Source of the DNA: Escherichia coli O157:H7
GTDB taxonomy: Bacteria; Pseudomonadota; Gammaproteobacteria; Enterobacterales; Enterobacteriaceae
Direction: 5' to 3' (one strand)
Length of the DNA stretch: 64,000 nucleotides
Assembly (NCBI RefSeq): GCF_013167455.1
Contig: NZ_CP038328.1
In this document: piece after piece, positions 24,001 through 27,000 of the stretch
Layout of the letters: each line of letters opens with the position of its first letter
Numbering within the stretch: the first letter of the stretch is position 1
Position numbers: made by a program

Positions 24001-27000
24001 AAAGACGGCACAGGAAAACCGGTAGAGAACTGCACCATTCAACTGAAAGCCAGACGTAACAGCGCCACGGTGGTGGTGAACACGGTGGCCTCTGAAAATC
24101 CGGATGAAGCCGGTCGTTACAGCATGGACGTTGAGTACGGTCAGTACAGCGTCATTCTGTTGGTGGAGGGCTTCCCGCCGTCACATGCCGGGACCATCAC
24201 CGTGTATGAAGATTCTCAACCGGGGACGCTGAATGATTTTCTCGGTGCCATGTCGGAGGATGACGTCCGGCCGGAGGCACTGCGCCGTTTTGAACTGATG
24301 GTGGAAGAAGCGGCGCGTCACGCTGAGGAGGCGAAGAAGAATGCCGGAGAGGCGGAGACGTCCGCGAGGAATGCCGGCATATCAGCCAGTCAGGCAGAAG
24401 AGAGCGCGGCAAATGCTGACACTTCAGCAGGGGATGCATCGGAGTCAGCCCGGCAGGCGGCAGAAAGTGCAGCCGCTGCAAAGCAGTCAGAGGAGGCGTC
24501 CTCGTCCTCGGCCTCTGCGGCCGCTCAAAAAGCCAGTGAGTCATCACAAAGTGCAGCAGAAGCTGAATTGTCAAGAAAGACGGCAGAAAGTGCAGCCGGT
24601 AATGCAGCCAGGGATGCAACGACCGCAACAGAAAAAGCCCGGGAGTCAGCAGAAAGCGCACAGTCAGCGGAACAAAGCAGGATAGCGGCGGAAGAGGCCG
24701 TAAACCGAATCCCCACCGTGGTGGGACCTCCCGGGCCAAAGGGGGAACAGGGGCCCGCGGGTCCTCAGGGGCCGAAGGGTGATAAGGGAGAGCGCGGTGA
24801 CACCGGCCCTGTCGGGGCAACCGGCGAACGGGGACCGGCAGGTGATGCTGGTCCGGCAGGCCCGCAGGGGCCGAAAGGTGACAGGGGAGAGCGGGGAGAG
24901 ACCGGTCTGACGGGAAATGCAGGTCCACAGGGTCCAAAGGGAGACACCGGGGCAGCAGGCCCGGCAGGCCCACAGGGACCGAAAGGAGAAACAGGTGCGG
25001 CTGGCCCGGTGGGGGCAACCGGACCTCAGGGACCGAAGGGCGACCCGGGGGAGACACAAATCCGTTTTCGTCTGGGGCCGGCGAGCATTATTGAGACAAA
25101 CAGCCATGGCTGGTTCCCGGATACAGATGGCGCACTCATCACCGGACTGACCTTTCTTGACCCCAAAGATGCCACACAGGTTCAGGGGCTGTTTCGGCAT
25201 TTGCAGGTCAGGTTTGGTGACGGGCCGTGGCAGGATGTTAAGGGGCTGGATGAAGTGGGCAGTGATACAGGCAGAACAGGAGAATGACATGAATATACTA
25301 AAAAAACTTATGCAGCGTCTGTGTGGTTGCGGAAAGCATGATGGCCGTGAACACGTGCAGTCGCTTACAGCACAACTGCGACTGGGGCCGGCAGACATCC
25401 TGGAGTCCGATGAGAATGGTATTATTCCGGAGCAGGACAGGGTAATCACGCAGGTGGTGATACTGGATGCGGATAAAAAGCAGATACAGTGCGTGGTAAG
25501 ACCGCTGCAAATTCTGCGTGCTGACGGGAGGTGGGAAAATATTGGCGGAATGAAATAGCCGACAGCTTCACAAAAACCGGAGTCCGGCTCCGGTTTTTGT
25601 TGTCATGTCCGGTGGATGTTTGTTAGGAATGTTCAGACAGGTTTATTTTGAATTTACACAGAATCCTAAACAGGTTCGAAAATTAAGAAAGAGGTTGTAT
25701 GTTTAGCATAAGAACCCTACTACCTATTAGCGCCAGCGTATCAGTTCCGACAAAACAATCTCAATCCATCCCAATAACTTTAGCAGGGAGAACAATCGAA
25801 AAAGCGCAAGAGAAAGAAGGATTACTTGTTTTTTTAGGAATGAAATCCGTTAATGACTATACTCTTAATATTCTTGGCCAAAATGTTTCAAGAGTCACAA
25901 CGGGGAAAAAACCGTATGATTTATTATTCCTGAATGATGCTACAAAACAAGATTTTGATAAAAGGAAAATGGAGTTTACATATCCTGGAGCAAATAAAAG
26001 CCATCTACAATCAAGTAATAGCGATGTTGTTGCTGCTGCAGCTATAAGTATTACAGCGACAGAGATGAAAACCATCCTGCCAGATGATTTAACACTAGGA
26101 AAATACAACAAAATTTATCTGTCTGGGCATGGTTCTGCTGGTCTACCTCTTCTTAAGTGCGGAGATGAATTTTTATCACCGTCAGATATTGTCGACCGCA
26201 TTGTTCAGCATAATCTTCATGAAATAGATGATATCAGATTAACATCCTGTAACTCAGCCAACATAATAAAAAACAAAGACTTCTCTCCTGATGAAATAGA
26301 AAAATCCGCAAATATGAATAACGGCTGGTTGGCCAGGGCATTATTTGGTCAAAAGAGGTCTTTAGCAGAACACGTCTATGCCGAGTTTGAACGTCGCGGA
26401 ATTAACGTTTCTATATCAGGTTACCATGGCACTGGCGTTTTTTATGTACCAGAGCATGGTAAACCAACAACGCATCTACGCTCCACAACTGTGCCTGCAA
26501 CACCTGAACATACTGTAAGAAGAAGCGACTACAGAGCCACTTTGGGTAGAACTCAACCCATAGATATTGAGTAATTGAGCCAGCATATACACTTGATGGT
26601 TAGGAAACAGAATCATTGTTTTAAACATTTCCTGGCCATTAATATTGTCGGCGGGAGCATATCCAGGACTGGCCGGCAAACCGGGTACGCGATCTGTTGC
26701 CATGGAAAGTTGATCTGAGCGCTCAGTAAATATCAATACGGTTCTGGCGAGCCGCTTACGATGCATGAGAATCACTAATAGTATGTAATTATTACATTTT
26801 ATTTACAATGCTGTTTCTGTTGGTCTGTATCCATAATTATGAAATGCTGACTTATGGTGTCAAAATAACACATATTCCTTTCAATAATCATTTCTTTTAC
26901 TATCTTTTCCCTGCTGAGAGGGTGGGGTAGATGTTCTCTTGTGAGATTCATGAACGCAGACTTATCATAAAGAGTGCATATGTTGGAGTTCAGTGCGTTC

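Follow-up and report, generated by a model that had tools for sequence, protein, structure and literature searches.

The 37-triplet collagen-like tract at 24724-25056 (+ strand) very probably encodes the triple-helical collagen shaft of a trimeric EPclA-type side tail fibre, a relative of lambda Stf from a lambdoid Escherichia coli O157:H7 prophage. This reading comes from comparison of the sequence with characterised homologues. A 2012 publication already covered this protein family together with its collagen fold, thermal stability and variable length across prophages, and as a discovery the tract is an ordinary known feature of little value. Positions given below refer to the window, that is, the whole stretch of 64,000 nt that was analysed.

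The collagen-like tract and the gene that encodes it

Translation of the open reading frame at 23968/23974-25287 gave an unbroken (Gly-X-Y)37 run of 111 residues, which is preceded by V (..PTVV) and followed by Q (QIRFR..). An earlier note on this DNA had correctly described the tract as unbroken but counted 36 triplets and 110 codons, two figures that are inconsistent with each other (36 x 3 = 108) and that both miss the actual 37 triplets and 111 codons. That note had also ended the tract at 25053, which falls two residues into the 37th triplet (G-E-T), and its count was therefore one codon short; the true end is 25056. The residues of the tract are G 37, P 20, A 12, T 8, K 7, E 7, Q 6, D 6, R 4, V 2, L 1 and N 1, with Pro at the X position in 18 of the 37 triplets. 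Describing this composition as rich in Pro/Lys/Gln/Glu, as had been done, is roughly right, although Ala and Thr outnumber Lys, Gln and Glu.

The G+C content was 71.5% over 24724-25053, compared with 51.3% for the window as a whole. The second longest G-X-Y run in the six frames of the 64 kb comprised 5 triplets, and the 37-triplet run is well past chance expectation. The Pfam Collagen model (PF01391) matched residues 253-363 of the 439-aa ORF with 65.4 bits (cut-off 27.2; E 3.9e-18), and PDB collagen chains were strong sequence matches to the fibre protein. A sequencing artefact was ruled out, since the identical sequence recurs in hundreds of independent genomes.

The tract lies within an EPclA-type side tail fibre gene at 23974..25287 (+; 437 aa plus stop), which we called from the ORF, the Pfam matches, the RefSeq annotation and the likeness to ECs2717 of strain Sakai. 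RefSeq places the start at ATG 23974, with GGGGTG just before it, and the mechanical ORF runs from GTG 23968 (439 aa). An exact match to the 437-aa protein was absent from the cluster collection, which may hold the 439-aa GTG-start version.

The gene opens with PfN (23974..24372, +; PF08400, E 8.7e-69, residues 3-135 of the 439-aa ORF), and continues with PCoil (24373..24723, +), a low-complexity, Ala/Ser/Glu-rich region of ~116 aa that was assigned by reading the sequence and from the EPclA architecture. Next comes Col, the (Gly-X-Y)37 tract (24724..25056, +), a predicted collagen triple-helix shaft on the basis of its translation, PF01391 and the likeness to ECs2717. PfC follows (25060..25251, +; PF06820, 64 aa, E 4.2e-36, residues 365-428 of the 439-aa ORF), and then a short tail up to the stop codon at 25285-25287. 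PF08400, PF01391 and PF06820 each scored over their own Pfam cut-off. The tract has neighbours of the nucleation type, with PfC directly after it and the coiled-coil region before it, whose trimerising activity has been shown for ECs2717 only. A PDB search found no solved structure with a sequence match to PfC, and the PfC alignment was shallow, its members being over 90% identical.

The prediction that long spurious antisense ORFs would cross the tract held true. Two mechanical ORFs are present on the minus strand, one of 286 aa (24197..25057, -), which is unannotated in RefSeq on identical sequence, and a second of 261 aa (24664..25449, -). Both follow from composition, because the tract is T-poor (6.6% T); stop codons were absent from it in two of the three minus-strand frames. 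For annotation, neither the 261-aa nor the 286-aa ORF should be called a gene.

Similarity to EPclA and to the side fibres of lambda

The fibre protein was identical to ECs2717 of Sakai prophage Sp14, the EPclA protein described by Ghosh et al. (2012, PLoS One 7:e37872; PMC3368898), at 428 of 437 positions (98%), and at 110 of 111 positions in Col, where the single difference is GEQ here and GEP in ECs2717. The nine amino-acid substitutions fall mostly in PfC. The two proteins share the same architecture (PfN, PCoil, a single Col, PfC), and the lengths of 437, 116 and 111 aa for the protein, PCoil and the collagen region agree with Table 2 of Ghosh et al., whose published primers and upstream motif match the window exactly (PMC3368898). 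Common to both tracts are Pro at X in about half of the triplets, Asp/Glu at X, and Lys/Arg/Ala/Gln/Thr at Y. The prophages are different, the present one sitting beside dacD and carrying nleG7, and that of ECs2717 being Sp14, with espJ and tccP. Nucleotide identity to the VT1-Sakai (Sp15) copy was 99.2%.

ECs2717 has been characterised as a dumbbell-shaped trimer by circular dichroism (CD), thermal melting and electron microscopy (PMC3368898). Its CD spectrum has a maximum at 220 nm and a minimum at 199 nm, the Col-PfC fragment melts reversibly with a Tm of 42 C, and the Col rod is 28-30 nm long (PMC3368898). CD of the expressed segment, which had been put forward as a check on the present tract, is therefore already in the literature for ECs2717, with a collagen spectrum (PMC3368898). 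The same paper also covers the other suggested check, in that it compares triplet numbers between prophages. The idea of a triple-helical spacer in a tail fibre gains support from the domain order, from the position after gpJ and lom, and from the 98% identity to this characterised protein. As the rod shown for ECs2717 suggests, the 37 unbroken triplets would zip into a rigid rod of ~30-32 nm. With no hydroxyproline, the stability of the rod would come from Pro at X together with acidic-X/basic-Y pairs, as the authors of the ECs2717 study proposed.

Residues 3-95 matched the homologous N-terminal collar domain of the Ur-lambda side fibre gpStf (PDB 9E7M/9MGH; E 4.3e-52), the gene for which likewise follows J and lom, and which likewise forms a trimeric fibre with a coiled-coil proximal part (PMC12617516). 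In the Ur-lambda gpStf structure, twelve copies of the collar domain bear four trimeric fibres, which are anchored where gpV and gpM meet in the tail (PMC12617516). By homology, the N-terminal PfN domains of the fibre described here would form a collar attached to the tail tip, and the rod would keep the distal PfC knob off the tail and within reach of the cell surface.

Lambda Stf, a protein of 774 aa, lacks a collagen tract; its shaft is built of coiled coil and Pf2 repeats, and its distal part, which is T4 gp37-like, binds OmpC and depends on Tfa. In contrast, the shaft here combines coiled coil with collagen, the fibre ends in the 64-aa PfC knob, and the tfa chaperone gene is a 67-nt pseudogene remnant downstream, as seen in the near-identical locus. 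A profile search found no T4 gp37-like distal domain in the fibre protein, the C-terminus of which is PfC. With the gp37-like region and the cognate Tfa both missing, the protein would work like a side fibre, yet appears to form a distinct sub-type.

Prophage context and integrity

The gene order gpJ, lom, fibre, which is that of a lambdoid prophage tail module, was shared by the window and all related loci examined. Directly 3' of the fibre gene in every one of these loci is an 89-aa ORF, here at 25289..25558 (+), with a stand-alone PfC-type domain that is 39% identical to the PfC of the fibre. Over 12 kb, strains FRIK1989 and 17B6-2 matched the window at 100% identity. We also considered ECP19-598, the strain that gave the first 100% match to the gene, as a collinear genome and rejected it, its collinearity being broken by indels and differently placed IS elements.

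Several features of the locus led us to weigh whether the prophage is defective and the gene an intact-looking fibre relic, of use only as a recombination donor for other prophages. The lom gene beside the fibre gene is frameshifted by an extra G, tfa is reduced to the remnant noted above, and in a 99%-identical prophage the annotation marks the portal gene as frameshifted. In addition, the fibre gene is matched at 15,355 places in 4,720 complete E. coli genomes, with up to 13-17 such places in O157 genomes, and the copies would therefore be redundant; near-identical multi-copy fibre genes are also a known assembly hazard for O157 genomes. This prophage copy of the fibre, with its adjoining frameshifted lom, may never yield particles. 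However, the fibre ORF is intact, and its dN/dS was about 0.2 overall and 0.12 in Col (a single pairwise comparison with one orthologue). The portal region of the window itself is a single open frame of 838 codons, and defectiveness of the prophage would in any case leave the encoded product of the tract unchanged. We therefore consider it unlikely, if worth keeping in mind, that the gene is no more than such a relic, and we favour the shaft of a side tail fibre as the reading of the tract.

Length variation and internal repeats

When triplet number was compared across related prophages, as the earlier note had recommended, EPclA-type relatives were found to carry 4 to 37 triplets, always in frame, with Gly-X-Y unbroken from flank to flank in all 78 of the representatives in which both flanks were present. 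Comparison with the 37-triplet allele revealed 20 distinct length differences of the single-block kind. At least two triplets were identical at both ends in 8 of these 20, compared with 2.8 expected (P about 1e-4), and the junctions were verified at the DNA level in four loci. Length changes occurred preferentially at the internal GPQGPKGD and GPVGAT repeats, in which most junctions of the variants lie. In the window there are five GPQ-GPK-G(D/E)x copies (24760-24786, 24859-24885, 24922-24948, 24967-24993 and 25021-25047, all +) and two further motif copies of the GPV-GAT type, the dispersed repeats spanning 24760..25047.

The repetition resides at the peptide level. The DNA of the motif copies is ~60-80% identical over 45-56 nt with exact stretches of at most 11 nt, the longest exact direct repeat is likewise 11 nt, and the Gly codons GGA, GGT, GGG and GGC are all used. 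Tandem Repeats Finder reported one 45-bp unit only, with 2.0 copies and an 80% match. The same 37-triplet length was present in all 40 of the best phage records, of which one, vB_EcoS_phi330, was 1 nt shorter overall, and in the six full-length E. coli matches listed. The phage records at 98-99% identity and of the same length include phage 2851 and vB_EcoS_phi330 (each with a host entry of its own) and the Sakai prophage VT1-Sakai. Even an O157:H7 orthologue that differs by 43 substitutions retains 37 triplets.

These observations bear on whether the tract is a hypermutable contingency locus, in which frequent slippage would produce mixed triplet numbers and switch fibre length on short time scales. 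Such a locus would fit the range of 4 to 37 triplets among relatives and the enrichment of junctions at internal repeats, and a 215-nt deletion inside the tract was seen at the orthologous locus of O157 strain Al Ain. That deletion, however, is out of frame, unlike a triplet-unit switch, and was the sole contraction seen there. Slippage of this kind is further opposed by the lack of a true tandem array, by the shortness of the exact repeats and the diversified synonymous Gly codons, by the equal lengths in the phage and E. coli matches, and by the 37 triplets kept in the substituted orthologue; we regard it as very doubtful. With DNA that is only weakly repetitive and a 37-triplet allele that stays constant among Stx phages, the tract is very probably not a hypermutable locus. 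It follows that the variation is evolutionary, arising when two short internal repeats recombine or when a deletion forms between them, and is not a fast contingency switch. The earlier view of this DNA as repetitive and prone to expansion or contraction was sound as to in-frame length variation among relatives, but overstated both the repetitiveness and the proneness. For the fibre shaft, we envisage that rod length would have been altered repeatedly in evolution as blocks of triplets lying between short internal repeats were lost or gained in frame, with the Gly register probably held unbroken by selection.

Other relatives of the fibre, namely EPclB and EPclD (the BP-933W/Sp5 tail fibre and the S74 fibres of Shigella and E. 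coli), share PfN, PCoil and a Col of variable length, and their Col segments are uninterrupted or nearly so. EPclB has two Col segments with a Pf2 repeat between them, compared with the single Col here. The S74-ended relatives have 9-38 triplets and carry the intramolecular chaperone PF13884 (peptidase S74) in place of PfC.

Comparison with collagen-like surface proteins

Scl1 and Scl2 of Streptococcus pyogenes and BclA of Bacillus anthracis, the last of which was matched in the PDB search at E 3.8e-8, have a hydroxyproline-free helix whose nucleation depends on an adjacent globular trimerisation domain, as is predicted here, and their triplet number varies between strains, as it does among the fibre relatives. 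They differ in being Thr/Gln-rich at Y and in having less Pro at X than the fibre, and also in carrying signals for secretion and anchoring, as proteins of the cell or spore surface, whereas the feature described here appears to be a virion fibre module. Ghosh et al. regarded a role as fibres on virions that promote adsorption as a strong inference only, and left a cellular role open (PMC3368898).

Upstream of the fibre gene lies lom, and downstream lie a T3SS effector-like gene and nleG7. A terminator-like hairpin of 8 pairs, 7 being G-C, with a T-run is located between lom and the fibre gene at 23936..23965 (+), and the motif TGTTATGAC, which Ghosh et al. consider a putative promoter (PMC3368898), is present at 23928-23936, 38 nt 5' of the ATG. 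This putative promoter was unsupported by a simple scan, as no promoter-like sigma-70 site was found near the fibre gene. Expression has been reported in connection with phage induction (PMC3368898), and the fibre gene accompanies tail modules in 141 phage records. From a reading of its sequence, the fibre protein has no signal peptide and no cell-wall or outer-membrane anchor.

Hence, although its place among cargo genes, the hairpin, the putative promoter and the cellular role left open by Ghosh et al. could be taken to favour a collagen mimic made by the lysogen, a prophage 'moron' product that is displayed or released by EHEC to bind host matrix or immune receptors in the manner of Scl and is no part of the virion, we find this hardly credible for a protein that lacks export and anchoring signals, has at its N-terminus the collar domain used by lambda Stf to dock on the tail, is reportedly expressed in connection with phage induction from a gene without a sigma-70-like site in the scan, and travels with phage tail modules.

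Possible implications for Stx phage fibres

The literature on collagen-like repeats and recombination in phage fibres yielded nothing specific to coliphages beyond Ghosh et al. As a conjecture in which we place low confidence, the GPQGPKG(D/E) and GPVGAT motifs of the side fibre shaft could serve as register-preserving recombination sites, at which the many fibre copies within a single EHEC genome would swap or drop triplet blocks. Shafts would then be quantised over ~3-32 nm, and their length may tune the reach of PfC relative to the J fibre, for example through O-antigen or capsule, and hence the adsorption rate or host range of Stx phages.

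A 37-triplet collagen-like tract in the side tail fibre

When the side tail fibre ORF (23968 from a GTG, or 23974 from an ATG, to 25287, + strand; 439 or 437 aa) was translated, we found 37 continuous Gly-X-Y triplets, or 111 residues, at 24724-25056. The earlier note had described 36 uninterrupted triplets ending at 25053; the unbroken periodicity held, but the span 24724-25053 is 110 codons and leaves out the final residue of the last triplet, G-E-T. Apart from the count and end coordinate, its description of the tract was accurate. G+C in 24724-25053 is 71.5%, compared with 51.3% across the window, and the tract consists of 37 Gly, 20 Pro, 12 Ala, 8 Thr, 7 Lys, 7 Glu, 6 Gln, 6 Asp and 4 Arg, with Pro at X in 18 of the 37 triplets. 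Such a run has no chance counterpart in the window, the second-longest Gly-X-Y run in all six frames of the 64 kb being 5 triplets.

Pfam searches placed Phage_tail_N (PF08400) at residues 3-135 (E 8.7e-69), Collagen (PF01391) on the tract (65.4 bits; cut-off 27.2) and Phage_fiber_C (PF06820) at residues 365-428 (E 4.2e-36). Between the first two lies a low-complexity Ala/Ser/Glu-rich segment, the Ala/Ser-rich coiled coil at 24373-24723 (+). Its length varies among relatives, in which the collagen starts at residue 188, 210, 224, 251 or 264, and alternative-frame ORFs open in this region at 24341-24685 (+) and 24525-24716 (-).

The long antisense ORFs that the earlier note had called spurious are present as a 286-aa ORF (24197-25057, -) and a 261-aa ORF (24664-25449, -), alongside shorter ones, and RefSeq annotates none of them on the identical sequence. 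With a T content of only 6.6%, the tract is poor in stop codons (about 1.8 expected per 111 codons at its base composition, versus 5.2 at that of the window); within it, two of the three minus-strand frames and the coding frame are stop-free and the +1 frame has one stop. This scarcity opens ORFs mechanically, and the antisense ORFs are therefore by-products of composition.

The fibre belongs to a characterised family

The architecture corresponds to that of EPclA, a protein type with N-terminal (PfN), coiled-coil (PCoil), collagen (Col) and C-terminal (PfC) parts, 437 aa in total with a 116-aa PCoil and 111-aa collagen, copies of which are listed for most lambdoid prophages of Sakai and EDL933 (Ghosh et al., 2012, PLoS One 7:e37872, PMC3368898). 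Using ECs_2717 of prophage Sp14, taken from the Sakai genome, as reference, we found 428 of 437 residues identical, including 110 of 111 in the collagen, where the sole difference is GEP in ECs2717 for GEQ here. The published cloning primers match exactly at 23974-24000 and 25258-25284, and the X and Y residue preferences are those tabulated by Ghosh et al. (PMC3368898). The feature thus belongs to a family that has already been described and characterised biochemically.

Recombinant ECs2717 is a trimer that dissociates upon denaturation, with PfC and PCoil as its trimerisation modules (PMC3368898). Its Col-PfC fragment has a collagen CD signature (maximum 220 nm, minimum 199 nm), and the collagen part melts sharply and reversibly at 42 C, separately from the coiled coil at 52 C (PMC3368898). 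By rotary-shadowing EM the protein is a dumbbell, in which the collagen is a thin rod 28-30 nm long (32 nm being predicted for 111 residues), joined by a hinge to a coiled-coil segment that is thicker and measures 14-16 nm (PMC3368898). The result is cited in a 2025 collagen-folding study. Trimer, triple helix, stability and length have thus been shown for a 98%-identical protein, which bears out the earlier interpretation of a triple-helical tail-fibre spacer; the CD experiment proposed for the expressed segment is likewise already in print, for ECs2717 Col-PfC (PMC3368898).

Genomic setting and neighbours

The fibre gene is 100% identical to an O157:H7 gene named "prophage tail fiber N-terminal domain-containing protein" in RefSeq, and the surrounding 12 kb matches O157:H7 strains FRIK1989 and 17B6-2 at 100% identity. 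Genes run in the order tape measure, M, L, an Arc/Arc/Ant insert, K, I, gpJ, lom, fibre gene, then an 89-aa ORF, a tfa remnant, a T3SS-effector-like gene, nleG7 and the chromosomal dacD and sbmC, which places the fibre gene at the far end of a lambdoid prophage tail module, in the position of lambda stf. The insert between L and K is a P22 immI-like Arc/Arc/antirepressor Ant module (~16500-18150), as annotated in a 99%-identical prophage. The cargo genes between the tail module and dacD encode NleG7 (26799-27467, -) and, at 25699-26574 (+), a product of 291 aa that hits phrog_6583 ("T3SS secreted effector Ibe") with E 3.7e-206. Three IS1203/IS629-type copies (~42655-43965, 53724-55033 and 62568-63877) are positioned differently than in strain ECP19-598, which breaks the collinearity of the window with the genome of that strain.

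One nucleotide past the fibre stop codon begins the 89-aa ORF (25289-25558, +), a stand-alone PfC (PF06820) with 39% identity to the fibre's own PfC and a member of phrog_576, "tail fiber protein". It directly follows the fibre gene in all related loci compared (L002-L005, L008-L010), and its product could be a cap or co-assembly partner of the fibre tip. Upstream, an extra G in a G run (near 23787) shifts the frame of lom (23309-23909, +), whose ORF ends at 23809 and is 166 aa long in place of 199; O157 Al Ain and Sakai Sp14 have an intact lom. Within 23928-23965 (+), a strong terminator-like hairpin of 8 pairs (7 G-C) with a T-run separates lom from the fibre gene. The upstream motif TGTTATGAC of Ghosh et al. 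occupies 23928-23936, at the 38-nt distance from the ATG that they state; this "putative promoter" of the literature overlaps the 5' edge of the hairpin, and a simple sigma-70 scan gave no promoter at 23928-23965.

Proposed working of the fibre

A match with E 4.3e-52 links the N-terminal 93 residues to the collar domain of the side tail fibre of Ur-lambda (PDB 9E7M/9MGH); in that structure, twelve collar copies wrap the gpV/gpM junction and bear four trimeric fibres. By homology, the fibre protein would dock on the tail like Ur-lambda gpStf, projecting first the coiled coil, then the hinge, the collagen rod and the PfC knob. Ur-lambda side fibres touch the cell earlier than the central gpJ fibre. 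Alongside virion docking, a role in adsorption may be proposed for the fibre. Ghosh et al. noted that micrographs resolve no such fibres and considered the role a strong inference only (PMC3368898). In contrast with lambda Stf, which has a gp37-like receptor-binding region, the fibre has no such distal region, and tfa, the gene for the chaperone, is here reduced to a 67-nt remnant.

At least 80% of the fibre gene is covered in 141 phage records. Matches of the same length at 98-99% identity include phage 2851 and vB_EcoS_phi330, whose records have their own host entries, and VT1-Sakai, a record of Sakai prophage Sp15. This carriage argues for a working virion gene.

Stability and length variation of the tract

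The repetition sits in the peptide rather than the DNA: Gly codons are diversified (GGA 11, GGT 10, GGG 9, GGC 7), the longest exact direct repeat is 11 nt, and Tandem Repeats Finder gave a single 45-bp unit in two copies with 80% match. The 37-triplet length is unchanged in the best 40 phage records and in the six full-length E. coli matches listed (the vB_EcoS_phi330 record is shorter by 1 nt overall). Even with 43 substitutions, an orthologous O157:H7 copy still has 37 triplets; in this one pairwise comparison the tracts differ by 16 nucleotides and 3 amino acids (dN/dS 0.12). We therefore rejected a hypermutable repeat, and the instability previously ascribed to repetitive DNA was overstated. 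The predicted in-frame expansion or contraction applies on an evolutionary scale, filtered by selection (4-37 triplets), but a fast switch finds no support.

The only contraction found at the orthologous locus is in O157 Al Ain (L008, NZ_CP043539.1 4974-6071), where an out-of-frame deletion has removed 215 nt from the collagen tract (window-equivalent 24752-24966); a second deletion of 1 nt downstream (25074) restores the frame in PfC. RefSeq treats this gene as a frameshifted pseudogene, and the deletion may reflect either genuine decay or misassembly of the repeat.

Among the best 120 cluster representatives from a protein collection search, all 78 having both PTVV and QIRFR flanks were Gly-X-Y-unbroken from flank to flank, with 4, 5, 8, 14, 15, 16, 19, 20, 21, 25, 26, 32, 36 or 37 triplets, while relatives ending in peptidase S74 had 9-38. 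Further collagen lengths of 63, 78, 81, 114 and 144 residues appear in the published tables (PMC3368898). The suggested comparison across related prophages, itself also in print (PMC3368898), thus shows a triplet number that varies, always in frame, and shaft lengths would range from roughly 3 to 32 nm.

Compared with the allele of 37 triplets, 20 distinct differences could be described as a single deleted or duplicated block. At least two whole triplets were identical at both block ends in 8 of the 20, versus 2.8 expected under random placement, and mean junction ambiguity was 1.15 triplets versus 0.40 expected (P about 1e-4). End points recurred at five GPQ-GPK-G(D/E) and two GPV-GAT motifs, with junctions at motifs confirmed at the DNA level in four loci; junction stretches share about 60-80% identity over 45-56 nt, with exact microhomology of 2-10 nt. 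This enrichment of junctions at internal motifs adds modestly to published work.
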